Of a stretch of 64,000 nucleotides of DNA, positions 6,580 to 43,431 are shown piece after piece. The notes beneath the pieces are model-generated. The model had not been told where the DNA came from. It did no database searches and saw nothing but the letters and a program-made list of their open reading frames with translations. Numbering within the stretch: position 1 is the stretch's first letter; the number at the start of each line of letters is the position of its first letter. The DNA lies in NCBI GenBank assembly GCA_016861205.1, contig BOKX01000001.1, positions 520,539 to 584,538 of the forward strand, in the 5' to 3' direction. The position numbers and the translations under genes were made by a program. The DNA is from Patescibacteria group bacterium (lineage in GTDB: Bacteria > Patescibacteriota > Microgenomatia > UBA1400 > PJMF01).

Positions 6580-6616
6580 ACTTGAATGGTACCATTCATT
6601 GTATAGTCTAGAGTGT

Positions 6617-11884: not shown

Positions 11885-11939
11885 ACGTCTATTCTAGACT
11901 ATCAGATTTTCTGGAAGTCGTGGCATAATCAATACAGCT

Positions 11940-24557: not shown

Positions 24558-24590
24558 CACCTGTCTCAAGACAGGTTAAAAACAAACTGT

Positions 24591-26161: not shown

Positions 26162-26947
26162 ATGGCCATGAACTCAAAACCCTTTCTCTCCGTCATCATT
26201 CCCTCCTACAACGAACAAAAAAACCTCGGCCGCGGCGTGCTTGATGAGGTAGTGACGTACCTCAAAACACAGTCGTATCCTTGGGAAGTCATTCTGAGTG
26301 ATGATGGCTCGAGTGATGGTACCGCCGATTTGCTTGATGATTTTGCCAAAAAACACGGTTCAAGCGTCAAAGTACTGCACAATATTCATGCAGGCAAAGG
26401 GCCCACTGTCCAGTCAGGTATGCTCCAAGCTACTGGCGAATGGCGACTGTTCACCGACTTTGACCAATCGACGCCTCTGGCTGAAGTCGAAAAATTGTTG
26501 AGTTGGGCTGAACAAGGTTATGAAATTGTCATCGGTTCTCGAGAGATCAAAGGTGCTCACCGCGATGAAGAACCCTGGTACCGCCACTTGATGGGCAAAG
26601 GCTTCAATCTGCTAGTTCAAACGCTGGCAGTCCCAGGCATCATGGACACCCAGTGTGGCTTTAAACTTTTCTCGGCGCAAGCCGCTGAACAGTTGTTTGG
26701 CGATCTGCACATCTACGGCCGACAAGAAGAGCGCCACGACGCGTTCACCGGCGCTTTTGACGTGGAAATTTTGTTCCTGGCTCGAAAACGTGGTCTTCGC
26801 ATCAAAGAAGTCCCTATCACTTGGAGTCACCACGAAACAGATCGGGTCAGTCCTGTTAAGGATTCCGCTCGAATGCTTCGCGATATTTTGATGGTCAGAT
26901 TGGCTGACCTCCAAGGCAAGTATGCCCACCGCAATCACAGCTCCTAA
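26162..26947 (+). CDS. Polyprenol-phosphate glycosyltransferase, Dpm1/GtrB-like GT2, soluble
   Basis: LSVIIPSYNEQKNL...LSDDGSSDGT...FDQSTP. It is tightly coupled to its flanking genes. Confidence 0.8.
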   Translation: MAMNSKPFLSVIIPSYNEQKNLGRGVLDEVVTYLKTQSYPWEVILSDDGSSDGTADLLDDFAKKHGSSVKVLHNIHAGKGPTVQSGMLQATGEWRLFTDFDQSTPLAEVEKLLSWAEQGYEIVIGSREIKGAHRDEEPWYRHLMGKGFNLLVQTLAVPGIMDTQCGFKLFSAQAAEQLFGDLHIYGRQEERHDAFTGAFDVEILFLARKRGLRIKEVPITWSHHETDRVSPVKDSARMLRDILMVRLADLQGKYAHRNHSS

Positions 26948-28238
26948 ATCTGGTTGGTGGTGGCTAGCCTGGTTCAGCTGGGGTTTAGGCTGGGCAGTTT
27001 ACATCTGGTTTTCCTACAGTTTGACCGCTCCTAATCTGGTCCTAAGTGGCTCAGCGCCTTTCTGGAAGTTCCAAACCTGGATGTGGAAAACATTTTTTAA
27101 CAACCGGGAACTCCTCGGCAACGTCTATCTGGCGATCATCACCTGGCAAGTAGCGAATTACCTCGGACTACTGTTTTTAACTATCAAAAAACGGCTGCCG
27201 GTACCTTGGTTGATGTGGTTGGGAGGACTGATAGCACTGTTGTTGGCGAATAATGCCCTGTCGTATGACGTTTTTAACTACATTTTTAATGCCAAAATGG
27301 TGGCTGTGTACCAGGTAAATCCCCATGTTCGAGTAGCACTCGACTTTGCCGATGATCCTTGGACTAGGTTCATGCACAACACCCACACCACTGCTCCCTA
27401 CGGCTATGGCTGGACGGCGTTATCCCTGGTGCCATTTTGGCTCGGTTTGGAACGGTTCACCCTAACCTGGCTACTATTCCGAGCTTGGAGTTTGCTGAGC
27501 ATCGGACTAACCTGGCTCAGTCTTGAGTGGTGCATTCGACTACTACGGTCAAAACGAGGTGGCAAGTCACTGGCGGACGCCTGGCAACGCTATCGCCTGG
27601 TGTTGTGGCTCAGTCCCTTATTACTCATCGAGATCATCACCAACAGCCACAACGACTTGTGGATGATGGCGCCGGCACTTGCCAGTTTGGGACTGGCGGC
27701 GGCTAGACCAGCCAAAAAGTGGTGGTGGATGGTGCTACTCAGTTTCGTGCTGCTCGTCGCCTCAGCCAGCATTAAGTACGCTTCACTTGTACTACTACCT
27801 CTGTGGCTAGCCTTGTGGACACAGGAATTGTGGAAACGGTGGCCGCTACTGTCTGGCTGGAGTCGATTGCTGGACTGGAGCTGGCCATGGTTGGCTTCGC
27901 TAGCTTTCTTTGCGCCGCTGCTTACCACTCGCTCACAGCAATTTCACCCCTGGTACTTAACTTGGGTACTGGTCTGGTGGCCATTGAGCTGGAGTCTAGC
28001 TGTTAGTCATCGCGACAGAATCAAGGGCTGGTGGCTGTGGCTACTACAAACGTGGTGGTTCATCGTCTTGTGCTTGTCGATCACCTCGCTGCTGCGATAT
28101 GCACCATACTTTTATGCCGGCGAGTTTAAACTGGGCGTATTGCTACATCAAAAACAAATCACTTGGTCTGGAGTTGGCCTAGGCCTTGGGTTGAGCCTGC
28201 TTACGAGGTGGTCGCCGCTCAAGCGTCAGGTCTCCTGA
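26922..28238 (+). CDS. Polytopic membrane protein (438 aa), putative GT-C-like transferase
   Basis: Many Trp-rich TM segments. Its start overlaps the end of the GT2 gene at 26162. The pairing resembles GtrB with GtrC. Confidence 0.5.
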   Translation: MPTAITAPKSGWWWLAWFSWGLGWAVYIWFSYSLTAPNLVLSGSAPFWKFQTWMWKTFFNNRELLGNVYLAIITWQVANYLGLLFLTIKKRLPVPWLMWLGGLIALLLANNALSYDVFNYIFNAKMVAVYQVNPHVRVALDFADDPWTRFMHNTHTTAPYGYGWTALSLVPFWLGLERFTLTWLLFRAWSLLSIGLTWLSLEWCIRLLRSKRGGKSLADAWQRYRLVLWLSPLLLIEIITNSHNDLWMMAPALASLGLAAARPAKKWWWMVLLSFVLLVASASIKYASLVLLPLWLALWTQELWKRWPLLSGWSRLLDWSWPWLASLAFFAPLLTTRSQQFHPWYLTWVLVWWPLSWSLAVSHRDRIKGWWLWLLQTWWFIVLCLSITSLLRYAPYFYAGEFKLGVLLHQKQITWSGVGLGLGLSLLTRWSPLKRQVS

Positions 28239-28732: not shown

Positions 28733-29092
28733 ATGAGTCTAGTTAAACTCACCCTGGCCACTACCCTGGCCGCCGCTCTGACGCTGGCGATGAGTTCTAC
28801 TGCTTTGGCTGACACTGTCAAACAAGAGCAAGAACTTAACACCAAGTCAGAGGTCAAAGTGACCTGCACCACCGGTGCTTATGGTCAAAGTAACACCTGT
28901 ACCGCTGAAGCTGACGCTGAGGCCAACGGTAAACAGTCACAAGAAATTGTGTACCGCACCAATGGTCGAGCCATCGTCGCTCACAAACCAGTCGATACTG
29001 GCGCTGACGTAGCTACCACTGCTGCCGTTTCTGGCACTGTGTTAGCTGGCGCTGCTGCCGCTGTAGTCCAGATTAAATCTCGCTTACAATAA
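28733..29092 (+). CDS. Small secreted protein (119 aa) with a signal peptide and an Ala/Thr-rich C-terminus
   Basis: There is an AAAGGAG ribosome-binding site. The N-terminus has the signal peptide TLATTLAAALTLAMSSTALA. A terminator hairpin follows the gene. Confidence 0.5.
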   Translation: MSLVKLTLATTLAAALTLAMSSTALADTVKQEQELNTKSEVKVTCTTGAYGQSNTCTAEADAEANGKQSQEIVYRTNGRAIVAHKPVDTGADVATTAAVSGTVLAGAAAAVVQIKSRLQ

Positions 29093-29200: not shown

Positions 29201-30469
29201 ATGTCCAATTCTGAATCACTGTCCACCCATCTTATCGATCCAAACATGATCGGTGTTGTGCGTCGGGCTGAGCTCCATCATCCAGCAGATAAAACCGATG
29301 CTCGCCACTTAGGTCGATACTACAGACCCGGGCATAAAAACAATCCATTTCCCGATAGCCATACGATCGAGGTCGAGCACAAAGTCACCGACAGAGAGTA
29401 CTGGGTGGACTTTACGCATCAAGCTATTGCCGAACTTCACGCCGGTAACTACTCCAAGAAAGATCGTGTTTTAGTGGCCCGCTACACAAACAAGCTGCTG
29501 CAACTCTTAGATGAAATGGTACAAGATCCAAACTTCGGCAGCGAAGCTGTCTTGGTTGTTCGCCACCATGAAAACACCCACGTTTTGCAAGAGGTGAAGT
29601 GGCAGATTTCTACTTTGATTCAACACGATTTACCTAATCTTCAGTATGCTACCCGCACCATGCCAAGTAGCCGGCGAGAGCTCTGGTTTTGGCGATTGCT
29701 GTTGAGCGCTGAGATGGAGGTCCAGGCATTTGCTGAGCAAGGTCGCCACCTCAACACTCCCACAGCCAAACTGATGCTCTGGCTGACGCTGCGACGCGCA
29801 GTCGGGTTACTCCAGCTTCACCAGCCAGGCCAGGCGGATCCCTTAACCCTCCTGCGTCAGGATGCGTTTTCCGAAACAACCACAGATGATCAGCTCGCCT
29901 ATCGGCTGGCCGCCATGAAGTTGCTACTACCCGATAGTGACACAATTGTTAACCTCGTCACACTCGAGCCAGCTCAAACCAGAGTTGTTTTAGCCCAAGC
30001 TCTTCAAACATGGTTAGATCGACCTGAAGAGGCTTTGCGGTCCGTCCATCATTCGACTTTTGCCCAACAACAAAATGATCATCTAGCTGAGTTATGTCAG
30101 CAGGCTCGGACACGTTTAACTGAACTATGGCAAAGTACCGGGTGTTTATCTTTTAACGCATTTTTGGCGTTACCACCTGAGAAACAAGTCAGTAATTTGC
30201 TGCCTGAATCAATCGCCTTTAGTGTGGCGATACTCAAGGTTTTGTATGCACTGAGCACCCATAAAGCCACCACCAGAGAACAACTGCTCCAGGACACTAG
30301 CTTGAATGAGCGTGCACTGAGCCAGACATTAGCCGAGCTCATCGCCTCTGGCTACGTTATCCAGCGCGAAGCTGCTGATCAGCCAACTATCTACTCTGTC
30401 AAACAGTTCATCAAAGATCTGATTCTGGGCCCGGTCGACCGGGAGTGGCAGCGACGAGACCAGGGTTAG
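29201..30469 (+). CDS. Hypothetical protein (422 aa) with a C-terminal winged-helix-like domain
   Basis: The C-terminus reads ILKVLYALSTHKATTREQLLQDTSLNERALSQTLAELIASGYVIQRE, which resembles a MarR/ArsR-type winged HTH. Confidence 0.45.
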   Translation: MSNSESLSTHLIDPNMIGVVRRAELHHPADKTDARHLGRYYRPGHKNNPFPDSHTIEVEHKVTDREYWVDFTHQAIAELHAGNYSKKDRVLVARYTNKLLQLLDEMVQDPNFGSEAVLVVRHHENTHVLQEVKWQISTLIQHDLPNLQYATRTMPSSRRELWFWRLLLSAEMEVQAFAEQGRHLNTPTAKLMLWLTLRRAVGLLQLHQPGQADPLTLLRQDAFSETTTDDQLAYRLAAMKLLLPDSDTIVNLVTLEPAQTRVVLAQALQTWLDRPEEALRSVHHSTFAQQQNDHLAELCQQARTRLTELWQSTGCLSFNAFLALPPEKQVSNLLPESIAFSVAILKVLYALSTHKATTREQLLQDTSLNERALSQTLAELIASGYVIQREAADQPTIYSVKQFIKDLILGPVDREWQRRDQG

Positions 30470-31218: not shown

Positions 31219-31233
31219 CCCTACTTGTAATCT

Positions 31234-31265
31234 GGGCCGGCCTCAAAAGCCGGCCCACTTTTTTG
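31234..31265 (+). terminator. Rho-independent terminator
   Basis: GGGCCGGCC-TCAAAA-GCCGGCCC followed by ACTTTTTT. Confidence 0.6.
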
Positions 31266-31287
31266 CCTGGTTTTTAGTCCTATAACA

Positions 31288-31316
31288 TTGACTTTTGGCC
31301 TATAAAATGCTACAAT
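31288..31316 (+). promoter_or_regulatory. Promoter (TTGACT, 17-nt spacer, TACAAT)
   Basis: Near-consensus hexamers with a 17-nt spacer. It is paralogous to the promoter at 30767. Confidence 0.45.
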
Positions 31317-31665: not shown

Positions 31666-32511
31666 ATGTTCAAAAAACTCGTAATCCTTTTTGTTGTAGC
31701 CAACTTCGTGTTGGCCGTATCTGGGGGCGCAATCCCGGCACTCGCTCAGGATTCGTCTAATTGCAACCCTACCTACCATGAATCCGATGGCTCATGGACG
31801 TTTCCGGGCTGTACCCGGGCGGAAGTTGAAGAATGGTTGGGCGAAGAAATTGCTACCAACGATGCCACCGTCGAAGATGAAGAAAACAGCATCGCTCCCA
31901 CTTTGTTCGATGCCGACAGCTGTGCCCCCGAAATGGGGTGGTGCAGCTTTGACATTGGCACCAAAGAAGGGCAGATTACGTTGGTGTTTGGCGTTGATCT
32001 TAAATGGGGAACTGGCCTGCGTGCCCAACCGAGCAACCGTTGTGAAGTTGTCGTTTTGACCGAGGAAACTTGGTTCGAAAATTTTGGCTTGCGCGACGCC
32101 CGCTATGAGGTGTATCAGACTGCCGAAGGCAGCTGGTATGCTGGCTGGCTTCAAACGTTGGTTTCACAGCGTCTCGCTGAACAGGCAGGAAATTACACTT
32201 GCCCCAATGATGTCGGACACGTTAAGGTCTGGGATGCTGACACCGAGGAATTTATTTCCCTTGAAGACAGTACCTTGTGGCCCAATGATGATGCAACCAC
32301 GACCATTGTTGAGGGTGAATGGACTCCCACCGGCGAAGATGGCACTTTGTCTTTCGAGGCCGGGTGGTCCGTTATTGGGTGGGAAATTGCCATCGGTGAC
32401 ACTACCTATAGTGACTGCTATTTCGCGTCTGCGCCTGCTGCGGGTACGGTAACCTCTGGGGTCATTTGGCCCTATGAGGATGAAATCTCCGCAGCGGTCC
32501 CCTGCGAGTAA
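31666..32511 (+). CDS. Secreted acidic Cys-rich protein (281 aa), hypothetical
   Basis: Signal peptide MFKKLVILFVVANFVLAVSGGAIPALA. There are 10 Cys residues and the protein is rich in Asp, Glu, Thr and Trp. Confidence 0.5.
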   Translation: MFKKLVILFVVANFVLAVSGGAIPALAQDSSNCNPTYHESDGSWTFPGCTRAEVEEWLGEEIATNDATVEDEENSIAPTLFDADSCAPEMGWCSFDIGTKEGQITLVFGVDLKWGTGLRAQPSNRCEVVVLTEETWFENFGLRDARYEVYQTAEGSWYAGWLQTLVSQRLAEQAGNYTCPNDVGHVKVWDADTEEFISLEDSTLWPNDDATTTIVEGEWTPTGEDGTLSFEAGWSVIGWEIAIGDTTYSDCYFASAPAAGTVTSGVIWPYEDEISAAVPCE

Positions 32512-32624: not shown

Positions 32625-32858
32625 ATGAAACACATCATGCCTTTCCTAACTGTCGTGATTCTGGCGGGAGCTTTTTTAGCGACGATTTTTGTGCAGACTA
32701 CTAGCTTGCTTAGCATCAAGGCTAGTGAAGCTCGCTCAGCAGCCGTTGATGGTTGTTTGAATGCGTCTTCATACACCTACTCAAAAGATGGCGTGACCAC
32801 TGTCGAACCAATCGAAAAAGCTGTCACGAAATGTTTAGAACTTAAAAACATTAAATAA
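32625..32858 (+). CDS. Small secreted or membrane-anchored protein (77 aa, 2 Cys)
   Basis: AAAGGAAA ribosome-binding site and an N-terminal hydrophobic segment. Confidence 0.4.
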   Translation: MKHIMPFLTVVILAGAFLATIFVQTTSLLSIKASEARSAAVDGCLNASSYTYSKDGVTTVEPIEKAVTKCLELKNIK

Positions 32859-32886: not shown

Positions 32887-33780
32887 ATGTCAAAATTAAA
32901 GACAAACCAACCGCTCGTCTCTGTCATCATGCCGATGTTTAATGCAGTGGAATTTGTGGCGGAAACAATCAGGAGTATTCAAAATCAAACCTACCCAAAC
33001 TGGGAACTGATCATCATTGATGACTACTCAACTGATGCTTCACGAGCCTTGGCTAAAAAAATTGCTAAACAAGATAACCGAATCTCCGTTTTTCGTAATG
33101 GCAAACATCGTGGCGTGTCAGGAGCAGCCAACCTGGCTTTGGCTAAAGCCAAAGGCCAGTTCGTTGCTCGGATGGACGCAGACGACTTATCTAGCCCAGA
33201 TCGACTAGCCAAGCAAGTGCGATTTTTGCAAAAACACAAGCAAGTCGTGGCCGTAGGGAGTCAGTGTTATTTGATCGACAAACATGGTCAGAAAACTGGT
33301 ACCAAAACCTTTCCACTGGATTTTGAGTCCGTGAAAAACATGATGTTTTACAGCATCCCATTGCAGCAGCCATCTTTAATGGTGAACCGAAATCTGCTGC
33401 CCAGTAACTTTGTGTGGTACCGAGAAAATTATCAAACTGCTGAAGAAGTTGAACTTTTATTTAAGTTTTTCAAGTACGGAGAAGTGGTAAATCTGCCCGA
33501 TTACCTCTTGTCGTATCGGATTCATGGCAACAATATTTCACTCAGACACCCTAAGTCCACATTTTTTCTAACATTCAAAACTCGTTGGTTGGCAGTTTGG
33601 CACTTTGGTTATAAACCAACTGTTAAAGGTATTTTCATTACCTTAGCTCAAGCTGCGGTCGTGTTCATTTTGCCAGAACCTTGGATTTTTCCGCTCTATG
33701 CATTCCTACGAGGATTCCGGAAACGTAAGTGGCCGAGCATAACTGTCACTTGGCCAAACTGGTCATGGCAAACCAGTTAA
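32887..33780 (+). CDS. Family 2 glycosyltransferase (GT2)
   Basis: VSVIMPMFNAVEFVAETIRSIQNQTYPNWELIIIDDYSTD...RMDADD. Confidence 0.8.
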   Translation: MSKLKTNQPLVSVIMPMFNAVEFVAETIRSIQNQTYPNWELIIIDDYSTDASRALAKKIAKQDNRISVFRNGKHRGVSGAANLALAKAKGQFVARMDADDLSSPDRLAKQVRFLQKHKQVVAVGSQCYLIDKHGQKTGTKTFPLDFESVKNMMFYSIPLQQPSLMVNRNLLPSNFVWYRENYQTAEEVELLFKFFKYGEVVNLPDYLLSYRIHGNNISLRHPKSTFFLTFKTRWLAVWHFGYKPTVKGIFITLAQAAVVFILPEPWIFPLYAFLRGFRKRKWPSITVTWPNWSWQTS

Positions 33781-33818
33781 CCTTTTTTACACTCAAGTTT
33801 GCTAAGATAGCTTCAGCA

Positions 33819-36800
33819 ATGCTGAAGCCGTGGGTTAAAAAAACTCTCAATCACTGGCCCGTAACACTTATTCTTTCGGTGTGGCTGTGTCTGCTTCTCA
33901 CCAACACTTATAATGATACTTGGCTGTTAGGTTGGGATAGTGTCGCCCCTGAGTTCAATCTCAAAGTAAACTTTATGAGAGCCGTGTTCCCTGCTTGGCA
34001 AGAGTTTCAGGGTTTAGGATTGGCAGGTGGAATGGGACATGGATCAGATCTGACGCGGTTGCCTTGGTTAGCCTTGAGTACTTTTATTTTGCCAGCTAAT
34101 CTTATCCGCTACAGCTGGCTGTGGTTGATGGTGCTGGCTGGACCACTGGGCGTCTATGCCTTGGGCTTAAGACTATTTCGCCACCAACAGAATTGGGTCA
34201 ATTCACTAGCAGCTGCAACTGCGGCTTTGTTTTACTTGGCTAACTTGGCCACAATTCAGTACTTCTTTGTACCACTTGAGACATTTTCTAGTTTTTTTGG
34301 TTGGTTACCCTGGCTAACATGGGCTGTTATCACTTACTGGGAAGAACCCAAAGCAAGCCAGCTGGCTAGGTGGTGGTTGGTGAGCCTGCTCAGCACCAGT
34401 GCCTTTTACGTACAAACACTACTGGTGGTATTTGGCTTTGTATTTGGCGGACTGGCCATCGAACATAGTCTGCGGCGTCGGCTTCACGGTTTGCTATCTG
34501 TTGGATTAGCCGGAATCATGCTTGGTGTCACACAGTTTTTTTGGTTTGCGCCGGTTGCCTACTTCACCTTAACTGCAGCAGATACAACCGTTAATGCCTT
34601 ACAAAATCGCTTAGCCACGCCAGAGGTTCAAGCCATGAATCATAGTTTTGGAGGTTGGTTTGAGAGTTTACGCTTGCGTGGCTATTGGTTCGAGTATGCC
34701 GATGTCAGCTTGGGCGATCCTATCCAATCCCGCTACTTGCTAGAAAAATGGCGCACTTTCACAGCACAACCACATATCATTAGTATTGAGTGGGCACTGA
34801 CAATCTTGGCAGGGGTTGGACTGATTCTTGCTGTTGTCCGGCGGCAAAAATGGAGTTTTGCCTGGCTTGGCATAGGAACCTGGAGCTTGGTTATGCTTTC
34901 GGCTGGCAATGGCTGGCTCGGTTGGATATTTAATCAGCTTGTAACAGCAATCCCACTGTTTGGACAGATGTTTAGAGTGGCTTTTACTAAGTGGTCACTG
35001 GTAACTGCACTGAGTTTCTCACTTGGTCTTGGTTGGTCGGTAGCTATCATAAGCGCAATTGTACCGACCAAGTTTAAAGCTAGTACAGCTGTCATCTCTA
35101 GCCTACTCATTATGAGTCTAAGCCTTGGCAGCGTTTGGCCAGCTTTTCAAGGCCAATTCTTATATCAAGGTGTCAAACCCAAGCTGCCTGTTGCGTATCT
35201 GCACGTTCAATCTTTCTTCCAATCTCAACCAACTCAGACACGGATTGCCATCCTGCCAATTCCTGATTTCTGGGGGTGGAGCTTTACCAACTGGGGCTAC
35301 CGTGGCAGTGGATTCCTTTGGTATGGCATCCCGCAACCAATTCTAGACCGCAATTTTGATGTATGGTCTTCCGCCAATGAAACTTTTTATCACCAATTAA
35401 GCACAGCGCTTTATGGTCGGAACATACCGGCCATCAAGGCGATCCTAGATCAATATGATGTTACCTACTTGCTCTTGGATTCCAGTATAGCCGTACCTGG
35501 CAAAAACCAAGAACTCCTCCGCTACACAGAGCTGCCGACCATCCTCGATCGCGTCGGGGCAAAACCTATCTGGAGCGAGGGTAGTTTGACTGTCTACCAA
35601 CTCATGCCTGCTCCAGTGGCTTCGTTCGTGACGGCACCTGGTAGCTTCCGAATTGCGAGTGCTGACACACTGTACTCACGGGTTGATCCCGTCTATCAGC
35701 AGCTCGGCAACTACATCGAGCCGATACCGACTGTACCAAGCCAAACGGTGTTCCCATTCGCCAACCTGACCACAACCTGGTTGACCAACGTACGCTATGA
35801 AGCTGATGGCGTCCATTTAATTGGCGAACTCCCGGCCACCACCGAGCAACTGAGACTTGTTATTCCCACTCCGGCTGTTGGGGAGCAATATACGACACCT
35901 GTTAGCGTGCTCCGAACCGCTGACGGTTTACTGCTAGAGTTCGCTCATCCGGGTGAGCTGCGAGTCGCCGGCCAACGTGTTTCACTACCACAGTTACCTC
36001 AGCTTGATTTACCACTGACAGCTAAAGTGGCAGCCACCACGCAGTTTACTATTTCACTCGGTGACCAGCGGTATGAGCTAGCCTCGACTGCTGCTCAACT
36101 CCAAGTTATGGTACCTCTTGAGTTTGGTCGCAGCTTGCCAATCAAAGTCAGTTACCAATCAGGTACTTCCAAATCAGCGCGCACTGACACCTTTACACTG
36201 CCAGCCGAAATTTGGCGAAACTTGGCCCAGCCACCGGAGCTCATCATTCCACCAGGGACTACTCAGCTGGAAGCAGTAGTAGCTAGCCAAGCTATCGAGC
36301 TCCCGTTTGTTAACTTACCTGGCACCAACTGTGATGTGTTACAACGAGGTAATAGTCGTCAAGAACAGGGACAAAGTACTGTCTCGTACTTTGCTGACCA
36401 GTATGGTGCTTGGTGTACTGGTTTGCCTATTTCGCAGTTGAACACTAATCAAAGTTGGCTGCTCCGTTGGCGAGGTGAAAACCGACAAGGCCGAAGCCTT
36501 AAGTGGTATCTGACAAACCAATCCACCCAACATACAGACTTGGAAGAGCTCCTGCCCAGTGGACAGTTTGACCGCACCTCCCCAGTCCTGGCCTGGACAC
36601 TCTTACCAACAGCTGGATATAGCCTTAACTGGGAAACCCGCTCTTTTGGCCAACCCAGCCAGAATCTATTGGCTGCTGTCACCGCTTATCCTTTGCCACT
36701 CTCGACACTCACTCAGCTACAGGTCATTCCGGTAACCGGCAGCTATCCGCTCACTGCCTTTAGTAATCAAGTCACCATTCGCAACCTCCGCAAAACTGGT

Positions 36801-37130
36801 ACCTATCAATACCAATTCACTGCTGATGTCACGAGCTCGAATGGACTAATCACCTTGTCACAAGGATATGATGCTGGGTGGCTGGGTTTTGTCCAGCCTT
36901 CTGGCAGCCGCTGGCCGTGGCAATGGCAACGACTCGCCCACACCCGCTACAACGGCTGGGCGAATGCCTGGATTATTCCCGATCGCGGCACCCACACTGT
37001 TCTTCTGTTCTACTGGCCTCAGTTGTTGAGTTTTGCCGGATTTATCGCCTTAGGAGTCAGTGGTGGTGTGATTCTGACATGGTCAACGCTACGCTTCGTG
37101 CAAGCTTCGCGATCTAAGATGAGCTCATGA
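33819..37130 (+). CDS. Giant membrane protein (about 1100 aa) with an N-terminal multi-TM GT-C-like domain, a large extracytoplasmic C-terminal domain and a terminal TM anchor (Emb/AftD/YfhO-like architecture)
   Basis: The ORF is continuous from 33729. The ATG at 33819 is the first start after the stop of the upstream GT2 gene. About 13 TM helices occupy the first 530 aa, followed by a beta-rich soluble region and a final TM segment. Confidence 0.55.
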   Translation: MLKPWVKKTLNHWPVTLILSVWLCLLLTNTYNDTWLLGWDSVAPEFNLKVNFMRAVFPAWQEFQGLGLAGGMGHGSDLTRLPWLALSTFILPANLIRYSWLWLMVLAGPLGVYALGLRLFRHQQNWVNSLAAATAALFYLANLATIQYFFVPLETFSSFFGWLPWLTWAVITYWEEPKASQLARWWLVSLLSTSAFYVQTLLVVFGFVFGGLAIEHSLRRRLHGLLSVGLAGIMLGVTQFFWFAPVAYFTLTAADTTVNALQNRLATPEVQAMNHSFGGWFESLRLRGYWFEYADVSLGDPIQSRYLLEKWRTFTAQPHIISIEWALTILAGVGLILAVVRRQKWSFAWLGIGTWSLVMLSAGNGWLGWIFNQLVTAIPLFGQMFRVAFTKWSLVTALSFSLGLGWSVAIISAIVPTKFKASTAVISSLLIMSLSLGSVWPAFQGQFLYQGVKPKLPVAYLHVQSFFQSQPTQTRIAILPIPDFWGWSFTNWGYRGSGFLWYGIPQPILDRNFDVWSSANETFYHQLSTALYGRNIPAIKAILDQYDVTYLLLDSSIAVPGKNQELLRYTELPTILDRVGAKPIWSEGSLTVYQLMPAPVASFVTAPGSFRIASADTLYSRVDPVYQQLGNYIEPIPTVPSQTVFPFANLTTTWLTNVRYEADGVHLIGELPATTEQLRLVIPTPAVGEQYTTPVSVLRTADGLLLEFAHPGELRVAGQRVSLPQLPQLDLPLTAKVAATTQFTISLGDQRYELASTAAQLQVMVPLEFGRSLPIKVSYQSGTSKSARTDTFTLPAEIWRNLAQPPELIIPPGTTQLEAVVASQAIELPFVNLPGTNCDVLQRGNSRQEQGQSTVSYFADQYGAWCTGLPISQLNTNQSWLLRWRGENRQGRSLKWYLTNQSTQHTDLEELLPSGQFDRTSPVLAWTLLPTAGYSLNWETRSFGQPSQNLLAAVTAYPLPLSTLTQLQVIPVTGSYPLTAFSNQVTIRNLRKTGTYQYQFTADVTSSNGLITLSQGYDAGWLGFVQPSGSRWPWQWQRLAHTRYNGWANAWIIPDRGTHTVLLFYWPQLLSFAGFIALGVSGGVILTWSTLRFVQASRSKMSS

Positions 37131-38416
37131 AGCTCTTCACTCAGTTGATCACCTGGACCGGCCTCGGATTGGCCTACCTGGCGATTGTTACTCCAGTTCA
37201 GGCGCAAGTGGTTATCAATGAAGTTGCCCCCTATCTCACTACCTCGTCAGAATGGATCGAGTTGTACAACGCTGGCTCGACTCCAGTGGACATTGGGAGT
37301 TGGCTGCTGCGCGACCAGTTGGCCACCCCCAGCGACCTCAAAGAGTTTGAACTCGAAACCATCCTCGAACCACATGGTTACTTCATCATCGAAACCATCA
37401 ACAAACTCAACAACACTGCTGATGGCGTCACGCTACTTACCGACACTGGTGAGGTTGTTGACCAAATGTCATTCACCTCATCAACTCAAAATCTAAGCTG
37501 GGCCAGAGTGCCAGATGCCGACAGCAACTGGGTGTTGAGCACACCTACGAAGGGCCAGCCCAATCCCAACAGCTTGCCTACCCCGACACCTTCTCCCACA
37601 CCTTCGGTTGCACCAACTCCATCTCCCTCTGCAACCCCGCAATCTAGTCCAACACCCATCCCCAGCTCTTCGCCGACCCCAGCACCTACCCCAGTCACCA
37701 TACCCGAACCGAGTCAGTGGCAACCATCCGAGATCATGGCGTGCCCAAGTAGTGGCGAAGCCGAATGGTTGGAACTCTATAATCCCGATCCTGTTAGCTA
37801 TAGTTTTACCAATTGGTTAGTTCGCGACTCACAAGGCAGTCTGAGGTCAGTCTCGTTCGAGCTACCGGCCTTTGGGTTTGGAGTAGCCTCTTGGGCAAGT
37901 GGTTTGCTCAACAACACCGGTGACTCACTGAGCCTCCTTAGACCTGATCAATCACTGGTTTTTACTGTTGACCTGTCAGCCTGTCAAAGTGGTCACAGCT
38001 GGGTGTTAGGCAGCAGTGGTTGGGAACTTAGTTCAACACCAACCCTTGGCACCCGTAACCAAAATGAACCATCTCCTACACCTTCACCTAGTGCCACTCC
38101 TGACAGTACCGCATCACTACCGTATGACAACTTTGCTTCTTCACTGCCACTATCAGCCAGTTTGAAATCCAGGCCAACTCCGATGACCAAATCGGCAGCC
38201 ACCACTGCAACCAAAAAACCAGCAGCCACTACTAAGTCACCAGCCAACGCAGCTTCACCTCAGCCTGAACCACCAGAAAGCCTCGAGATTACTGGTCCTA
38301 CCATCAAAACTTGGCCATTCATAAGTGTTATAATGGGTGGCGCCTTGATACTGGGCGCGGGTATCTATGATCTTGAAATCGCGCCGTTGGTCCAGTGGTT
38401 GGCTCGCATGGGTTAA
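37127..38416 (+). CDS. Secreted surface protein with two lamin-tail domains (LTD), separated by Pro/Thr/Ser-rich linkers, with a C-terminal TM anchor
   Basis: It has a signal peptide. Two LTD cores are present: VINEVAPY..SEWIELYN...TADGVTLLTDTGEVVDQ and SEIMACPSSGEAEWLELYN...NTGDSLSLLRPDQS. The linkers read PTPTPSPTPS. Confidence 0.7.
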   Translation: MKLFTQLITWTGLGLAYLAIVTPVQAQVVINEVAPYLTTSSEWIELYNAGSTPVDIGSWLLRDQLATPSDLKEFELETILEPHGYFIIETINKLNNTADGVTLLTDTGEVVDQMSFTSSTQNLSWARVPDADSNWVLSTPTKGQPNPNSLPTPTPSPTPSVAPTPSPSATPQSSPTPIPSSSPTPAPTPVTIPEPSQWQPSEIMACPSSGEAEWLELYNPDPVSYSFTNWLVRDSQGSLRSVSFELPAFGFGVASWASGLLNNTGDSLSLLRPDQSLVFTVDLSACQSGHSWVLGSSGWELSSTPTLGTRNQNEPSPTPSPSATPDSTASLPYDNFASSLPLSASLKSRPTPMTKSAATTATKKPAATTKSPANAASPQPEPPESLEITGPTIKTWPFISVIMGGALILGAGIYDLEIAPLVQWLARMG

Positions 38417-38768
38417 TGGTTACTTACCAGTTATCCTCTGGGCTTTAGTTATCTTCAGCTTTTCAGCCCAACCGGTGCTACCCAGTATTGAAGTCAGTAC
38501 CCTCGACTTTGTGTTTAAGAAGTTCGCCCACATGGGGGTCTACGCAGTACTGTACATCCTGTTGGTTCGAGCCCAGTACTTAACGTTTCCAGCTACCAAA
38601 CCATCGCAAGTGTATCGATTGCCACTACTGATTTGTTTTATTTACGCCTTGACTGACGAACTACATCAATCTATAACAGGAGGTAGTCGAAGTCCAAGCG
38701 CACGGGACGTGGTGTACGACATGTTGGGAGCCGGAATTATCCTGCTTCGCCAATACAAATACATATAA
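38367..38768 (+). CDS. VanZ-like family membrane protein
   Basis: Four TM helices and the motif TDELHQSITGGSRSPSARDVVYDMLGAGI, which matches the VanZ DExHQ..R..D signature. Confidence 0.6.
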   Translation: MILKSRRWSSGWLAWVNGYLPVILWALVIFSFSAQPVLPSIEVSTLDFVFKKFAHMGVYAVLYILLVRAQYLTFPATKPSQVYRLPLLICFIYALTDELHQSITGGSRSPSARDVVYDMLGAGIILLRQYKYI

Positions 38769-38833
38769 TCGGTCCTTGACTCCATATCATTTTCGCTTAG
38801 ACTTCATTACTACATACGCCGTAGAAAGGTACC

Positions 38834-39109
38834 ATGACTAAATCTCAACTGATTGCCATTGTTGCTAAGAAAGCTCACCTCACCAAACGCGCTTCCGAAG
38901 AAGCCATAGAGGCCTTGTTTGAAGAGGTAATCCGCTCACTACGTAAAGGTGAAAAAGTGGTAATCTCTGGTTTTGGCACTTTCTACTTGGGCAAAGTTAA
39001 AGACAAACAAGTGGTGCCTTTTGGTCAAGAAAACAAACGCCAAACTATCAAAGGTCATCGCGTGGTCAACTTCCGCGTTGGCAAACCTCTCAAGAAAACT
39101 GTTTGGTAA
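38834..39109 (+). CDS. hup: HU family DNA-binding protein
   Basis: MTKSQLIAIVAKKAHLTKRASEEAIEALFEEV...GFGTF...R.G.NP is a close match to HU/IHF. Confidence 0.85.
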   Translation: MTKSQLIAIVAKKAHLTKRASEEAIEALFEEVIRSLRKGEKVVISGFGTFYLGKVKDKQVVPFGQENKRQTIKGHRVVNFRVGKPLKKTVW

Positions 39110-39183: not shown

Positions 39184-39984
39184 ATGGGTAGAAAAGCCTT
39201 ACACGTTCTCAAAAAAGCTTTTATCGCCGCCATCACCTATCGCAGTGAAATTTGGCTGTGGTTTGTGCTGGATCAAATTCCCATCATCGTCACCATGCTG
39301 GTCTGGATTAGCCTGATGCAGTCTCACGACACCATTGCTGGCTATGACTTGCCGAGCATGCTGCTGTACTACTTTCTCAGCTCATTCCTAACAGGCTTGA
39401 CAGGCACCCACTTTGAAACTTGGCGGGTGGAAGAAATTCGGATGGGTCGTATCGATTTTTACCTTACCCGACCAATGTCATACATTTGGCAGGTGTTTTG
39501 GCATGATATCGGTGGCAAAACATTCTATCTTTTAACAAGTTTGCCTGGTTATGCAGTGCTGTTTTGGATTATCAATCAAAATTTTCCGCTAGCCCAACTC
39601 CAGTTCACTTGGCTGTCATCGCTGCAGTTTTTGTGGCTCTTACTATTTGCCTATGGGGTCGATTTTTCCCTCGCCATGTTGACTGTTTTGATGGGCTTTT
39701 GGTTTGAAGGTGCAGAAGGTTTACAACATTTTAAGTGGATCACGTTATCATTATTGACTGGCTCAATGATGCCCGTGGCAGTTATGCCAACGTGGTTGCA
39801 AACCGTCATCGCTTACTTGCCATTCCGATACATGATCAGCGTACCGATTGGGATTATCCAAGGTACTGCCCAGTTGCAACTGAGTGATTTGAGCTGGATG
39901 GTAGGTTACATAGCGGTCTTTTCACTCAGCATTATCTGGCTCTGGCGACAAGCTCGCTATGCTTACGCGTCAGCAGGTGGTTAA
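39184..39984 (+). CDS. ABC-2 family transporter permease, first of four
   Basis: 266 aa and six TM helices. It is in an operon with the ATPase at 40811. Confidence 0.6.
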   Translation: MGRKALHVLKKAFIAAITYRSEIWLWFVLDQIPIIVTMLVWISLMQSHDTIAGYDLPSMLLYYFLSSFLTGLTGTHFETWRVEEIRMGRIDFYLTRPMSYIWQVFWHDIGGKTFYLLTSLPGYAVLFWIINQNFPLAQLQFTWLSSLQFLWLLLFAYGVDFSLAMLTVLMGFWFEGAEGLQHFKWITLSLLTGSMMPVAVMPTWLQTVIAYLPFRYMISVPIGIIQGTAQLQLSDLSWMVGYIAVFSLSIIWLWRQARYAYASAGG

Positions 39985-39987
39985 GAT

Positions 39988-40791
39988 ATGACCCGCAAGG
40001 ATGTCCAAAAATACTGGCGACTGTTTTGGAAGTTTCGACAACTCCACTTGATGAGAACGTTGGAGTATCGAAGCAATTTCCTGTTCTGGACAGTGGTCAC
40101 GTCATTCTGGACCATCGTTAACATTTTCTTTTTTGGCATTTTGAGTGGGATCGGTAATGGTATCGGTGGCTGGACCCAATCTGAGATGCTTTTCCTGTTG
40201 GGTGTGTTCACCTTTTTAGACGGGATTATCTGGTCATTTTTCTACCACACCATGTCTTTTTACACCAAATCAGTTTTTAATGGCGAGCTGAGTCGATTTT
40301 TGCTGATGCCAGTTGATGCCCAATACATTTTGATGGTTCATACCAATAGTTACAGTAATATTTTCCGGCTCCTAACCGGGCTAGTAATGATGGGCTACGC
40401 CATCTACTTAATGAATATCCCCATCACAATTTGGTTGTTGGCAGGTGTGGTTTTTTGGCTGACCGTGGGCTCAGTCTTTATTTACACACTGTGGTTTTTA
40501 CTCAGCACGTTCGCATTTTGGGTTGAGAAGCTGGATAACATCAATGAATTAGTGCCGAGCCTGCGCAGTTTTTGGCAGATTCCCAAAAGTGTGTTGCACG
40601 GTTGGCTGTCGGTTATGTTTGGCTGGATTTTGCCTATCGCCTTAATAAGCACAGTTCCCAGTGAGTATGTGTTAGGTCGATTAGCATGGCAAACTGCAAC
40701 AGTTTTCTTATTGGCAACGATAGTCACTGCCACTGCCTCCCGCTGGTTTTTTCTCCACTCTGTTAAAAAATTTACTGGTGCTGGAAGCTAA
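39988..40791 (+). CDS. ABC-2 family transporter permease, second of four
   Basis: 267 aa and six TM helices. Confidence 0.6.
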   Translation: MTRKDVQKYWRLFWKFRQLHLMRTLEYRSNFLFWTVVTSFWTIVNIFFFGILSGIGNGIGGWTQSEMLFLLGVFTFLDGIIWSFFYHTMSFYTKSVFNGELSRFLLMPVDAQYILMVHTNSYSNIFRLLTGLVMMGYAIYLMNIPITIWLLAGVVFWLTVGSVFIYTLWFLLSTFAFWVEKLDNINELVPSLRSFWQIPKSVLHGWLSVMFGWILPIALISTVPSEYVLGRLAWQTATVFLLATIVTATASRWFFLHSVKKFTGAGS

Positions 40792-40810
40792 AAGAAAGGT
40801 AAAATAGGCT

Positions 40811-41806
40811 ATGTCTGACGCCGTCATTCAAGTTGATCATCTCAGCAAATACTTCAAGGTTTACCACAAAGAGGCGGGACTGTGGGGCTCGGTCAAATCG
40901 CTCGTCCATCGCGAGTACCACGAAGTGAAAGCTGTCGATGACGTCAGTTTTGAAATCAAACAGGGTGAAATTGTTGGTTTTATCGGCCAAAATGGGGCTG
41001 GCAAAACCACTACCCTGAAAGTCCTCTCGGGATTACTATATCCAACCAACGGCCAAGTCCGGGTTCTCGGCTACAATCCGTGGGATCGGCAACCCGCCTT
41101 TCAAAAACAGTTTGCACTAGTCATGGGTCAAAAAAATCAGTTGTGGTGGGACTTACCAGCTATTGAAACTTTCTTACTAAATCAGGCTATTTATGAAATC
41201 CCAGAAGCTCAGTTCAAAAAGACGCTGAACAAACTGGTTGAGCTGCTTGATGTCAGTGACATCCTTAATGTCCAAGTTCGCAAGTTGTCACTAGGTCAAC
41301 GCATGAAGTGTGAATTAATCGCAGCATTACTGCACAATCCCAAAGTGTTGTTTCTTGATGAACCTACTATTGGCCTGGATGTGGTGATGCAAAAAGTGCT
41401 GCGCGACTTTATTCGTACCTACAATGCAGAGTTTAACTCCACCATCATTTTGACCAGCCATTATATGGGTGATGTTAAAGAGCTTTGTGAACGGGCCATT
41501 ATCATCGACAAAGGTCATAAAATTTTCGATGGCAAACTCCAAAGCATTATCGATCGCTACGCACGCAACAAAATTTTGTCACTCATCATGTCCGAAAATG
41601 TCAGCCTCAAACAGCTTGAAAAATACGGGGAAGTCAAAGAGTTTGAGTTGCCAAAAGTCACGTTATTGGTGCCACGTGCCCAAGCCACCAAAGTTGCTGG
41701 CCAAATTTTAACCCACCTGCCGGTGCTCGATGTGAACATCGAAGAACCACCCATCGAAGCCATCATTCGTGAAGTGTTTGAAACTAAAGCAGACTTACAA
41801 GTCTGA
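40811..41806 (+). CDS. ABC transporter ATP-binding protein
   Basis: Walker A GQNGAGKTT, signature LSLGQRMK, Walker B LFLDEPT and H-loop TSHYM are all present. Confidence 0.9.
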   Translation: MSDAVIQVDHLSKYFKVYHKEAGLWGSVKSLVHREYHEVKAVDDVSFEIKQGEIVGFIGQNGAGKTTTLKVLSGLLYPTNGQVRVLGYNPWDRQPAFQKQFALVMGQKNQLWWDLPAIETFLLNQAIYEIPEAQFKKTLNKLVELLDVSDILNVQVRKLSLGQRMKCELIAALLHNPKVLFLDEPTIGLDVVMQKVLRDFIRTYNAEFNSTIILTSHYMGDVKELCERAIIIDKGHKIFDGKLQSIIDRYARNKILSLIMSENVSLKQLEKYGEVKEFELPKVTLLVPRAQATKVAGQILTHLPVLDVNIEEPPIEAIIREVFETKADLQV

Positions 41807-41808
41807 CC

Positions 41809-42627
41809 TTGTTCATGAACTTAATGCCACAATCGCTGTCTAAGTATTACCGATTGTTTGTGCTCTCCTGGCAAAATGGCTTGGTTTATCGTACCAGCTT
41901 ACTGATTTGGCGTTTGCGGCAGTTGCTCTCAACATTGATGGCCCTCACCATTTGGAGCGTTATTTTTACTGATCAAAGCTCTGCGTTCAGTTACACCCGG
42001 TCTGAAATGATCAGCTATGTGTTCTTGGTTTCTATTTTGCAGAGCCTTATTCTAGCCAGTAGCCTGCACAGTTTGGCCGGTGATATCTACAATGGCAACA
42101 TTAGTCAGCAACTCTTGAAACCCCAGAACTTGTTTATGCACTTTTCGGCTCTGGAGGTAGCGGACAAACTTCGGAATGTTTTTTTTAGTTTGATAGAGGG
42201 TGCTGCACTATATGCCTTGTTTATGCCCACTATCATTTGGCCTTCATTACAAACCTGGTTTGTTTTCATTATCTGGGCTATTTTAGGCACCGTAATTCAT
42301 TTTTTTATCACCATCATTTTTGGCTCAATTGGGTTTTGGAGTCCAGAAACTTGGGGTCCTAAGTTCTTATTTTTCATGATCCTTGATTTCACCGCTGGCA
42401 AACTTTACCCACTCGATATTTTACCGCGTGCCGTTCAGCAGGTCCTATTGATCACACCCTTTCCCTATTTATCATACGTACAAATCCAGCTGTTCTTAGG
42501 TCGATTGACATCAACCCAGATGGCGTGGGGTTGGATTAGTTTGTTGATCTGGACGGTCATTACCTGGCTAGTCGCCCAGTGGGTCTGGACCAAAGGTACC
42601 AAAGGTTATGAAGCTAACGGACTTTAG
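41809..42627 (+). CDS. ABC-2 family transporter permease, third of four
   Basis: 272 aa and six TM helices. Confidence 0.6.
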   Translation: MFMNLMPQSLSKYYRLFVLSWQNGLVYRTSLLIWRLRQLLSTLMALTIWSVIFTDQSSAFSYTRSEMISYVFLVSILQSLILASSLHSLAGDIYNGNISQQLLKPQNLFMHFSALEVADKLRNVFFSLIEGAALYALFMPTIIWPSLQTWFVFIIWAILGTVIHFFITIIFGSIGFWSPETWGPKFLFFMILDFTAGKLYPLDILPRAVQQVLLITPFPYLSYVQIQLFLGRLTSTQMAWGWISLLIWTVITWLVAQWVWTKGTKGYEANGL

Positions 42628-42633
42628 TTAACT

Positions 42634-43431
42634 ATGCGATCGCGCTTGAACACCTACTTTAAAGTTTGGTGGCTAACAGCCGCTAATGCAGCTCAGTCAG
42701 CTTTCATCAATCGCTGGAGTAACGCCTTATTCATGCTAGGTAAAATTTTGCGTCTCATCATGATGTTGGTGTTTTTATTTCTATTGAAAGATCGTCAGCT
42801 TTCGATAGCTGGCTATAGTAGTGATCAAGTCGTGTTGTTTTTTCTCACTTACCAGATTATTGATGTCACCGCCCAAATTTTCTATCGCGGCGTGTATGTC
42901 TTCAGTCAAAAAATCCGAACAGGTGAGTTTGATTTTTACTTGCTGCGCCCTATTAGCGCGCTATTTCGGGCTTTAACTGGCCAACCAGACCTCAATGATG
43001 CTCTCTTTCTGGTGTTGTTCTTGCCTGTCATGGTGGCCGTGGTCTGGCAACTTGATGTACATATCACGTTGCCATCACTATTGGGATATCTTGTGCTACT
43101 GCTCAACAGTTTTATGATTGTAACGGCCCTGCATATTGCAGTCTTAACAATTGGAGTTTTGACCACTGAAGTGGATAACATTATCTGGATGTACCGGGAC
43201 TTGATTCGCCTCGGTCAGTTCCCTGTCACGATGTACTGGGCACCGATTCGGTTTGTCTTATTTTTCGTTGTGCCAATTGGATTGATGATTACGATCCCCG
43301 CCCAAGTCCTCCTTAACGTACCACCAAGCGTGAATCTTGGTTTAGCAACCTTACTGGGGATTGGATCAGTGATTATCAGTTTGCAGGCTTGGCACTGGGC
43401 TTTGAAACAGTACAGCAGCGCCAGCAGTTGA
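42634..43431 (+). CDS. ABC-2 family transporter permease, fourth of four
   Basis: 265 aa and six TM helices. Confidence 0.6.
   Translation: MRSRLNTYFKVWWLTAANAAQSAFINRWSNALFMLGKILRLIMMLVFLFLLKDRQLSIAGYSSDQVVLFFLTYQIIDVTAQIFYRGVYVFSQKIRTGEFDFYLLRPISALFRALTGQPDLNDALFLVLFLPVMVAVVWQLDVHITLPSLLGYLVLLLNSFMIVTALHIAVLTIGVLTTEVDNIIWMYRDLIRLGQFPVTMYWAPIRFVLFFVVPIGLMITIPAQVLLNVPPSVNLGLATLLGIGSVIISLQAWHWALKQYSSASS

Follow-up and report, generated by a model that had tools for sequence, protein, structure and literature searches.

A giant AftD-like GT-C protein beside a lamin-tail-domain/VanZ gene pair in a patescibacterial genome: a probable juxtaposition of two conserved modules

In mycobacteria, AftD acts as an alpha-(1->3)-arabinofuranosyltransferase (PDB 6W98, 6WBX and 6WBY; Pfam PF11847). 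Its published structure consists of 11 transmembrane (TM) helices of the GT-C type, a soluble GT-C domain, three carbohydrate-binding modules (CBMs) with a beta-sandwich, TM12, and then TM13-16, a bundle that binds acyl carrier protein (ACP) and is essential. AftD itself resembles STT3/PglB structurally, and its homologues have been reported only across Actinobacteria. Other GT-C enzymes act on proteins. In streptococci, those of the YfhO family O-glycosylate Ser/Thr-rich disordered regions of membrane proteins (GtrB/PgtC2 and PgfS/PgfM1); the pgf genes of S. mutans adjoin adhesin genes, with PgfS/PgfM1 beside Cnm, CnaB and CbpA, and in Pseudomonas the arabinosyltransferase-like enzyme TfpW modifies pilins. 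VanZ proteins have been placed in the lipocone superfamily, whose predicted targets are the head groups of lipids, either phospholipids or polyisoprenoid lipids (Burroughs, Nicastro, Aravind, eLife 2025, PMC12419801). The same work defines the VanZ-2 family by its RKxxH and DxxxD motifs, and describes a patescibacterial operon in which genes for an ABC ATPase transporter, for a coiled-coil peptidase and for a TM protein whose lamin-tail domains (LTDs) are external accompany VanZ-2; the operon is read as a lineage-specific peptidoglycan modification system (PMC12419801). Here we analyse a locus of a Patescibacteria group bacterium that recalls each of these systems in part. It occupies positions 32887 to 38768 of a stretch of 64,000 nt (the window, corresponding to positions 520,539-584,538 of contig BOKX01000001.1, assembly GCA_016861205.1), and all coordinates are given relative to this window. 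Four genes make it up:

32887-33780, + strand: family 2 glycosyltransferase (GT2) of "type A" (GT2A), 297 aa
33819-37130, + strand: giant AftD-like GT-C protein (hereafter the giant), 1103 aa, with alternative starts at ATG 33765 and GTG 33729
37127-38416, + strand: membrane-anchored surface protein with two LTDs, 429 aa
38367-38768, + strand: VanZ-2-type lipocone membrane protein, 133 aa

An earlier sequence-only reading of this DNA had described four co-directional genes with overlapping or nearly abutting ends, and both the coordinates and the junctions hold. GT2 and the giant gene are separated by 38 nt, or overlap by 16 or 52 nt if the alternative starts are used; the giant and LTD genes overlap by 4 nt (ATGA); and the LTD and VanZ genes overlap by 50 nt, with overlaps of 32-59 nt in independent gene calls from relatives. 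Pfam and NCBIfam also agree with the GT2, LTD and VanZ identities given there. The four-gene arrangement goes beyond chance, since relatives keep this order even where identity between the giant proteins is only ~40%. The reading had gone further, proposing a surface adhesin encoded together with its dedicated glycosylation machinery. Such an operon is not supported, because comparison with relatives resolves the locus into two gene pairs, each independent of the other, whose adjacency is confined to a single small group of bacteria. The region is probably best understood as a juxtaposition of two independently conserved modules. The first, a cell-envelope glycan module, comprises two upstream genes (up281 and up77), GT2 and the giant gene. 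The second, LTD-VanZ followed by a gene for an HU-family protein, is the distal part of the published FtsE-FtsX-peptidase-LTD-VanZ wall-modification operon.

The giant has no match in Pfam or NCBIfam. A word-indexed search returned at least 155 homologues, all patescibacterial where an organism is named and all called only "hypothetical protein" at source. By an exhaustive profile search, the family numbers 7,682 clusters (50% identity) when hits up to E 1e-3 are counted and 1,837 when the limit is 1e-30; its members are encoded in at least 502 species-level genomes. Modelled by AlphaFold on an alignment of 45 sequences (pLDDT 91.5, pTM 0.90), the chain divides as follows:

33819-35153, + strand: GT-C domain with 11 TM helices (model)
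33936-33938, + strand: invariant Asp40 in the first external loop (alignment of 45 homologues)
35154-35618, + strand: soluble alpha/beta domain (model)
35619-37013, + strand: beta-sandwich domains, ~460 residues (model)
37017-37124, + strand: C-terminal TM helix, aa 1067-1102 (model)

The GT-C core put forward by the sequence-only reading is therefore present in the model, although its count of about 13 TM helices is replaced by about 11, with two short helices in loop 1 and a broken TM3, plus the single C-terminal helix. When the model is compared with the PDB by Foldseek, the best match is mycobacterial AftD, which aligns over the whole length (6W98_A, E 7e-18, TM-scores 0.46/0.39). Ranks 1-9, with E up to 1e-05, are all GT-C enzymes, namely AftD and STT3-containing complexes. 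STT3/PglB enzymes range from 3e-07 to 5e-05, Emb stands at 4e-03 and Pmt4 at 8e-03 (rank 45); PglB, Emb and Pmt4 come lower in the list, interleaved with beta-sandwich toxin and CBM domains. Of the Emb/AftD-like architecture suggested earlier, it is the AftD likeness that is borne out. The beta-rich ectodomain resembles CBM-like domains (SGBP-B, CBM 2c26 and the C-terminal domains of Vip3). The giant has the marks of the GT-C superfamily: a multi-pass N-terminal domain with juxtamembrane helices, an extracytoplasmic soluble domain and an acidic residue in loop 1. This residue, D40, belongs to a GWD motif 10 residues after TM1 and is invariant in the 45 homologues. Both tails of the protein are positively charged, and the charge of the N-terminus would place D40 on the outer side of the membrane. 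As modelled, the giant is a membrane glycosyltransferase of the GT-C fold with an AftD-like architecture.

At the sequence level the kinship with AftD is more distant. AftD chains are the sole matches of the family profile among PDB sequences, through AftD residues 1160-1255 at a marginal E of 0.06; the aligned segment is the C-terminal beta-sandwich, with the shared motif GW...NGW.NGW. Alignment of the AftD N-terminal domain failed with the window giant, the family profile and P0019 alike (Pnnnn denotes homologues of the giant protein). Six of the 45 homologues match PF11847 GT-C_AftD at E<=1. Among those inspected individually, P0019 alone exceeds the gathering score (39.9 bits against a cutoff of 26, residues 81-575), and P0088 stays below it. 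P0019 is 34% identical to the window giant over the full length, but the window giant itself has no PF11847 match at E<=1, so its link to this family is transitive rather than direct. The AftD-type C-terminal four-helix bundle (TM13-16) is also missing, the chain ending at residue 1103 after a single helix. Because it falls below the Pfam threshold and the ACP module is absent, we call the giant AftD-like, a GT-C of a new and shorter kind, rather than a strict member of the AftD family. The analogy that had been drawn with actinobacterial Pmt enzymes is not supported. PMT, PMT_2 and MIR matches are absent both from the window giant and from the families matched by its 45 homologues, Pmt4 is a distant structural match, and more Pmt-like GT-C enzymes with proper synthase partners are found elsewhere in the window. 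Weak matches to PTPS_related do occur among members of the giant family. PTPS_related and YfhO are GT-C family models, which we take to be near each other.

The neighbouring GT2 matches Pfam Glycos_transf_2 at 1.7e-37, and its best NCBIfam matches are TuaG and EpsE. Two of its features bear on its role:

33175-33186, + strand: DADD motif (motif inspection)
33550-33708, + strand: three C-terminal helices, aa 222-274, one of them hydrophobic (model and hydropathy)

Its kin by sequence are chondroitin/heparosan synthases, GalT1, TarS and TarP, with far weaker similarity to DPMS (6e-08) and ArnC (3e-06). The top Foldseek matches of its model (pLDDT 91.5) are heparosan/chondroitin synthases, SpsA, WrtF, a PglI-like enzyme, TarS, TarP and RmlT, and the best 50 contain no DPMS, GtrB or ArnC; these structural neighbours are Leloir GT-A enzymes that lengthen glycans or polymers. 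The DADLQ motif is a mark of DPMS/GtrB/ArnC-type enzymes; this protein has DADD instead. Its sequence and predicted structure point to an ordinary nucleotide-sugar (Leloir) enzyme of the GT-A fold, similar to TuaG and EpsE. This bears directly on a three-component model like that of CsbB/GtcA/YfhO, for which an adjacent GT-A and GT-C pair is the hallmark. GT2 would make a polyprenyl-phosphate monosaccharide, a flippase would export it, and the giant would decorate the side chains of a wall polymer. The C-terminal helices of GT2 could tether it to the membrane for such a task. In some relatives, moreover, a DPMS/ArnC-like GT2 with the DADLQ motif (GT2B) adjoins the cassette, and in the double-GT2 proteins of several relatives it is the second half that matches sequences of the GT2B type. 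The window GT2 is nevertheless unlikely to be the polyprenyl-phosphate sugar synthase of a classical three-component system, because sequence and structure group it with Leloir enzymes (TuaG, EpsE, SpsA, TarS, TarP and the polymer synthases). A Pfam scan of 32887-38768 revealed no GtrA-type or other dedicated flippase gene, and in at least 17 loci of relatives a GT4-like enzyme is the only visible partner of the giant. On the strength of the TuaG/EpsE kinship, the DADD motif and the structural neighbours, the synthase role was rejected as the leading reading of GT2, and we consider the three-component model improbable.

The company kept by the giant gene in other genomes supports its assignment to a glycan module. 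Relatives were collected as 80 genome loci anchored on the giant and 19 metagenome loci anchored on VanZ (numbered Lnnn), and partner genes were classed from seeds that separate GT2A, GT2B, GT4-like and FkbM proteins. A figure of "GT2 in 71/80 loci" from a first neighbour clustering was rejected, as it arose by single-linkage chaining of GT2, GT4-like and FkbM proteins. With the classes separated, a co-directional Leloir glycosyltransferase gene flanks the giant gene in 73 of the 80 loci; of the seven exceptions, four lack practically any sequence upstream. The window type, GT2A-giant, is seen in 23 loci, plus variants; GT4-like-giant in 17, GT2B-GT4-like-giant in nine and GT4-like-giant-GT2A in seven. 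As a background, 5 of the 477 genes situated over 3 kb away from the giant gene encode a GT2. The alternative partners, which are GT4-like enzymes, the DPMS-like GT2B and FkbM methyltransferases, are typical of glycan clusters. FkbM-type methyltransferase genes lie within the cassettes of L022 (7199-8029), L035 (6086-6964) and L037 (1017-1853), which suggests that the glycan may carry methylated sugars. One apparent fusion of GT2 and giant (L001, 6795-11159) was discarded as the artefact of a 100-N scaffold gap, and the L001 GT2 is a double-GT2 protein.

These partners also lend something to a model of en bloc transfer, in which the giant would be an oligosaccharyl- or polysaccharyltransferase, or a polymerase, moving a polyprenyl-diphosphate-linked glycan made by the adjacent Leloir enzymes onto peptidoglycan, a lipid anchor or a protein. 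GT4-like and FkbM partners are typical of repeat-unit assembly, GT2A resembles extenders of undecaprenyl-diphosphate-linked glycans (PglI-like, WrtF, TuaG, EpsE), the window contains a Wzx-type flippase gene (8641-10182), and STT3/PglB are the next-best structural matches after AftD. That last similarity is generic to the fold class, however, because AftD itself resembles STT3/PglB, and relatives of the AftD, Emb and YfhO types use monosaccharide donors. En bloc transfer is accordingly rated as very improbable.

The second module begins with the LTD protein, which matches Pfam LTD in two stretches (9.9e-22, 77.8 bits against a cutoff of 34.3). Its parts are:

before 37208, + strand: N-terminus with a signal-like segment (hydropathy)
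37208-37546, + strand: first LTD, aa 28-140 (Pfam)
37547-37726, + strand: linker rich in Pro, Ser and Thr, aa 141-200 (35% Pro, 35% Ser+Thr)
37727-38041, + strand: second LTD (Pfam)
38042-38296, + strand: stalk rich in Ser, Thr, Pro and Ala (composition)
38309-38377, + strand: C-terminal TM anchor, aa 395-417 (hydropathy)

The earlier description of Pro/Ser/Thr linkers between the LTDs and before the anchor agrees with composition and hydropathy, and within one 40-aa segment of the linker the three residues reach 82%. Such linkers, together with the C-terminal anchor, are general in these LTD proteins whether or not a giant gene is adjacent, while two giant-adjacent LTD proteins (L084 and L085) have weak ones. 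The short "LTD" proteins of L012, L013 and L022 were excluded as products of iterated-profile drift; the one scanned, from L012, has no Pfam LTD match. The next protein matches Pfam VanZ (1.9e-11) and NCBIfam vanZ_1 (2.1e-17). Its invariant residues are K52, H55, D97, E98, H100, Q101, D114 and D118, and the VanZ-2 motifs are present and conserved as KKFAH (KKxxH) and DVVYD (DxxxD). By these motifs, the window VanZ is assigned to the VanZ-2 family of the lipocone superfamily.

LTD and VanZ are tightly associated. For VanZ, a word-indexed homologue search gave five proteins, and loci were scanned with a 6-sequence alignment, a 12-sequence alignment being too divergent. LTD stands immediately upstream of VanZ, usually overlapping it, in all 14 testable VanZ-anchored loci. 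The association suspected from sequence is thus real, and it has already been published for Patescibacteria (PMC12419801); it is independently corroborated here. The giant gene is a much looser companion. The LTD gene lies directly downstream of it in 5 of the 65 loci with enough sequence, and in the tree of giant proteins this adjacency is limited to the sub-clade of the window and a few neighbours. Within that sub-clade, the order GT2-giant-LTD-VanZ-HU(-ABC-2) is well kept (L081, L083, L086, L090 and L099), but in L082 two opposite-strand genes separate giant from LTD. Seen from VanZ, the giant gene is upstream of LTD-VanZ in 6 of 10 testable loci, once on the opposite strand, and is absent from L091, L093, L097 and L102. 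Of the conserved LTD/VanZ/giant synteny that was to be looked for, only the LTD-VanZ part is general.

The remainder of the published operon shows where the two modules meet. In L102, the genes follow one another directly as FtsE-FtsX-peptidase-LTD-VanZ, which is the published form. In L001, L010, L019 and L081, FtsX and the peptidase lie a few kb upstream, and small secreted-protein genes and GT2-giant come between them and LTD; FtsE is also present in L019 and L081, VanZ in L010, L019 and L081, and the L001 contig ends at LTD. L082 matches this order beginning with the peptidase; L020 retains the portion upstream, FtsX and the peptidase included, and its contig ends inside the giant gene. 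In the clade of the window, the glycan module therefore sits between the peptidase and LTD genes, which is most simply read as insertion of the cassette within, or beside, an operon that already existed. The window contains a homologue of one of the small secreted proteins encoded in this interval. This Cys-containing protein lies between FtsEX-peptidase and the glycan cassette in L001 (3979-4347), L019 (3487-3843) and L081 (3089-3436), and at 28733-29092 in the window. In Roizmanbacteria, a type I-B CRISPR-Cas locus is reported to be inserted between the gene for a secreted protein rich in cysteine and that for an LTD protein (PMC6509639), which hints that the interval is perhaps a recurrent insertion site.

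The 4-nt overlap of the giant and LTD genes draws attention to another alternative, in which surface proteins, the LTD protein among them, would have their extracytoplasmic Ser/Thr/Pro-rich linkers O-glycosylated by the giant with a lipid-phosphate sugar donor made elsewhere in the genome, in the manner of GtrB/PgtC2, PgfS/PgfM1 and TfpW. The linker composition suits such a target: YfhO-family GT-C enzymes modify regions of this kind, the S. mutans pgf cluster lies beside adhesin genes, and TfpW, which glycosylates pilins, is arabinosyltransferase-like. The PTPS_related matches of the giant family point the same way, as do the GT2 proteins of polyprenyl-phosphate sugar synthase type that exist in the window. 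Against this stand the rarity of giant-LTD adjacency, the LTD-VanZ pairs with no giant nearby, and the linkers, which occur irrespective of the giant and are weak in L084 and L085. Moreover, AftD, the nearest structural relative, acts on a polysaccharide, the ectodomain is CBM-like, and the PMT- and PMT_2-type enzymes of the window are closer to known protein O-mannosyltransferases. While streptococcal precedents exist, no specific support emerges for a dedicated role of the LTD protein as glycosylation substrate, and we regard this alternative as possible but doubtful.

Returning to the two-module reading, a mechanism can be proposed for each part by comparison with AftD, Emb and YfhO. On the outer side of the membrane, the giant would use a polyprenyl-phosphate-linked donor and transfer its sugar to an extracytoplasmic acceptor held by the CBM-like beta-sandwich ectodomain, most likely a wall or membrane glycopolymer. 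Its Leloir partners would build or prime a lipid-linked glycan in the cytoplasm, with GT2 probably tethered to the membrane through its C-terminal helices. In the other module, the membrane-anchored LTD protein may bind an extracellular polymer, and the VanZ-2 lipocone enzyme is predicted to act on the head groups of polyisoprenoid lipids.

Several observations weigh against this picture. The four genes abut or overlap, and their order is kept across ~40%-identical giants, which could reflect functional coupling. No FtsX or peptidase homologue is found in the 64-kb window. No residue-level match to the essential residues of AftD (K39, D41, E251, K361 and D474) was obtained, and the activity of the giant is predicted, by analogy, for the family as a whole. 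Finally, the acceptor could be a protein: the YfhO family sets a precedent in streptococci, and the fold cannot distinguish between the two. A protein acceptor is compatible with weak synteny, because the streptococcal and TfpW systems act on many targets encoded elsewhere. The GT2-giant cassette may even have been recruited into the FtsEX-peptidase-LTD-VanZ operon through functional coupling, the giant either glycosylating the LTD linkers or building a glycopolymer that is bound by the LTDs while VanZ-2 processes its polyprenyl-linked precursor. We hold such coupling to be rather unlikely.

The limits of the transcription unit and the genes around the four are given by the following features:

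31233-31257, + strand: terminator-like hairpin with a 9-bp stem (8 G-C pairs) and a T-tract
31288-31316, + strand: best sigma-70-like site of the region, TTGACT-17-TACAAT, 10/12 matches, with a TG extension
31666-32511, + strand: up281, secreted protein with no Pfam or NCBIfam match
32625-32858, + strand: up77, small protein with an N-terminal hydrophobic segment and no Pfam or NCBIfam match
38834-39109, + strand: HU-family DNA-binding protein (Pfam Bac_DNA_binding, 1.5e-19)
39184-43431, + strand: ABC-2-type transporter genes, permeases and ATPase (Pfam ABC2_membrane_6)

The promoter-like site at 31288-31316 precedes both up281 and up77, and the transcription unit probably starts upstream of 32887, with a 5' boundary near 31233-31316. 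In a promoter and terminator scan of the region, total site counts were not above those of shuffled controls, so we infer the operon boundaries with caution and take 31233-31316 as suggestive. From their spacing and these weak consensus matches, GT2, giant, LTD and VanZ are probably co-transcribed in the window, and up281 and up77 probably belong to the same unit as the GT2A-giant cassette. Homologues of up281 lie upstream of GT2 in L004, L006, L007, L011, L024, L032, L042, L046, L047, L054, L080, L081 and L083, and homologues of up77 directly upstream of it in the close relatives L004, L019, L081 and L083. The two genes are kept upstream of GT2A-giant in at least 12 relatives, and accompany the giant more often than LTD does. 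On the other side, HU directly follows VanZ in nearly all loci at a gap of ~65-120 nt, a tighter linkage to LTD-VanZ than that of the giant gene. In the window this gap contains a promoter-like site (38776-38803), from which HU is probably transcribed on its own. The ABC-2 genes follow HU in the same order in L002, L018, L019, L082, L083, L086, L088, L094 and L099; this is conserved local synteny, and they are not demonstrably part of the system.

Positions 1-28238 of the window form a dense envelope-glycan region with several GT2 and GT4 genes. Its membrane proteins and synthase-like enzymes include:

337-1830, 6437-8623 and 16602-18230: large membrane proteins with no Pfam match
8641-10182: Wzx-type flippase
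10142-11884: YfhO/PTPS_related-like protein
15184-16686: PMT-like protein
23382-24557: GT2 with a fused GtrA/DPMS TM domain; a PMT_2-type GT-C comes directly after it (pair 23382-26159)
26162-26947: ArnC/PgfS-like GT2, 261 aa, overlapping the beginning of a membrane protein of 438 aa without family match (pair 26162-28238)

For Pmt-like or YfhO-like glycosylation, these last two, classical pairs of a polyprenyl-phosphate sugar synthase and a GT-C, are stronger candidates than the giant. By their N-terminal sequences alone, the products of 13256-15156 resemble RmlB/RmlD-type enzymes, that of 20139-21431 a UDP-glucose dehydrogenase and that of 22372-23364 a GDP-mannose dehydratase. The open reading frame at 29201-30469 (422 aa) has no Pfam match and is unrelated to the neighbourhood.

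Some further observations were made among the relatives. At a single locus, L012, a gene with a prepilin-type N-terminal methylation motif (11471-12073) lies directly downstream of the giant gene and overlaps its end, an arrangement that recalls pilin-glycosylating TfpW. In six loci of one sub-clade, including L042 (11264-13405), the gene immediately downstream of the giant encodes a VirD4/TraG/HerA-like ATPase. Many contigs with the giant family (L004-L008 and others) are titled "uncultured Pseudomonadales" or "uncultured Gammaproteobacteria", labels that look wrong, and the complete genome of L033 (CP011212.1) is titled "candidate division TM6".

Patescibacteria are ultra-small and mostly uncultured bacteria whose envelope chemistry is almost unknown, and a search of the literature available to us yielded nothing on the giant family in these bacteria of the candidate phyla radiation (CPR). 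The predicted structure allows a fold and a probable activity to be assigned to a very large family so far labelled "hypothetical". It extends the AftD-type architecture beyond Actinobacteria, in a minimal form that dispenses with the ACP module, and the conserved partner genes point to an envelope glycopolymer pathway in these bacteria. The cassette inside the LTD-VanZ operon is a place to ask whether surface glycosylation, wall remodelling and a lipid-head-group enzyme are functionally coupled. If the giant did glycosylate the LTD linkers, it would be the first AftD-type protein O-glycosyltransferase.

The comparison with known systems can now be drawn. Like AftD, the giant begins with a GT-C domain of 11 TM helices, in which TM3 is broken and two further helices are juxtamembrane, and continues in the same order through an alpha/beta domain and a beta-sandwich to a re-entrant TM helix; an acidic residue follows TM1 in both (D40, as against the essential D41 of AftD). 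It differs in being ~300 aa shorter, stopping after the equivalent of TM12 without the ACP-binding TM13-16; it is patescibacterial, it is partnered by Leloir genes of the GT2 or GT4 kind, and nothing suggests an arabinan. With the CsbB/GtcA/YfhO, GtrABC, Csd and Gac systems, the locus shares a GT-A gene adjoining that of a large GT-C with an extracellular, probably carbohydrate-binding domain, and an envelope of Gram-positive type. Its GT-A is not of the CsbB/GtrB/DPMS type, however, and has no adjacent GtrA flippase gene; the classical pairs are elsewhere in the window, at 23382-26159 and 26162-28238. Actinobacterial Pmt (GT39) has the GT-C fold as well, and acts on Ser/Thr-rich secreted proteins, but the fold match of the giant to this group is weak (Pmt4, E 8e-03) and the giant has no PMT or MIR domain; other genes of the window code for PMT- and PMT_2-like proteins. 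As for streptococcal O-glycosylation, a GT-A, a GT-C and a Ser/Thr-rich surface protein are clustered in S. mutans as they are here. There, the GT-C is of the YfhO family and the GT-A of the GtrB type; here, they are AftD-like and TuaG/EpsE-like, and their clustering with the surface protein is not conserved. In the published VanZ-2/LTD operon, the peptidase and LTD genes are not parted, as they are in the clade of the window, by GT2-giant and the genes for small secreted proteins, and its ABC transporter is unrelated to the ABC-2 system downstream of HU. What the two share is the pairing itself, with the VanZ-2 gene placed directly after that of a TM protein bearing external LTDs.

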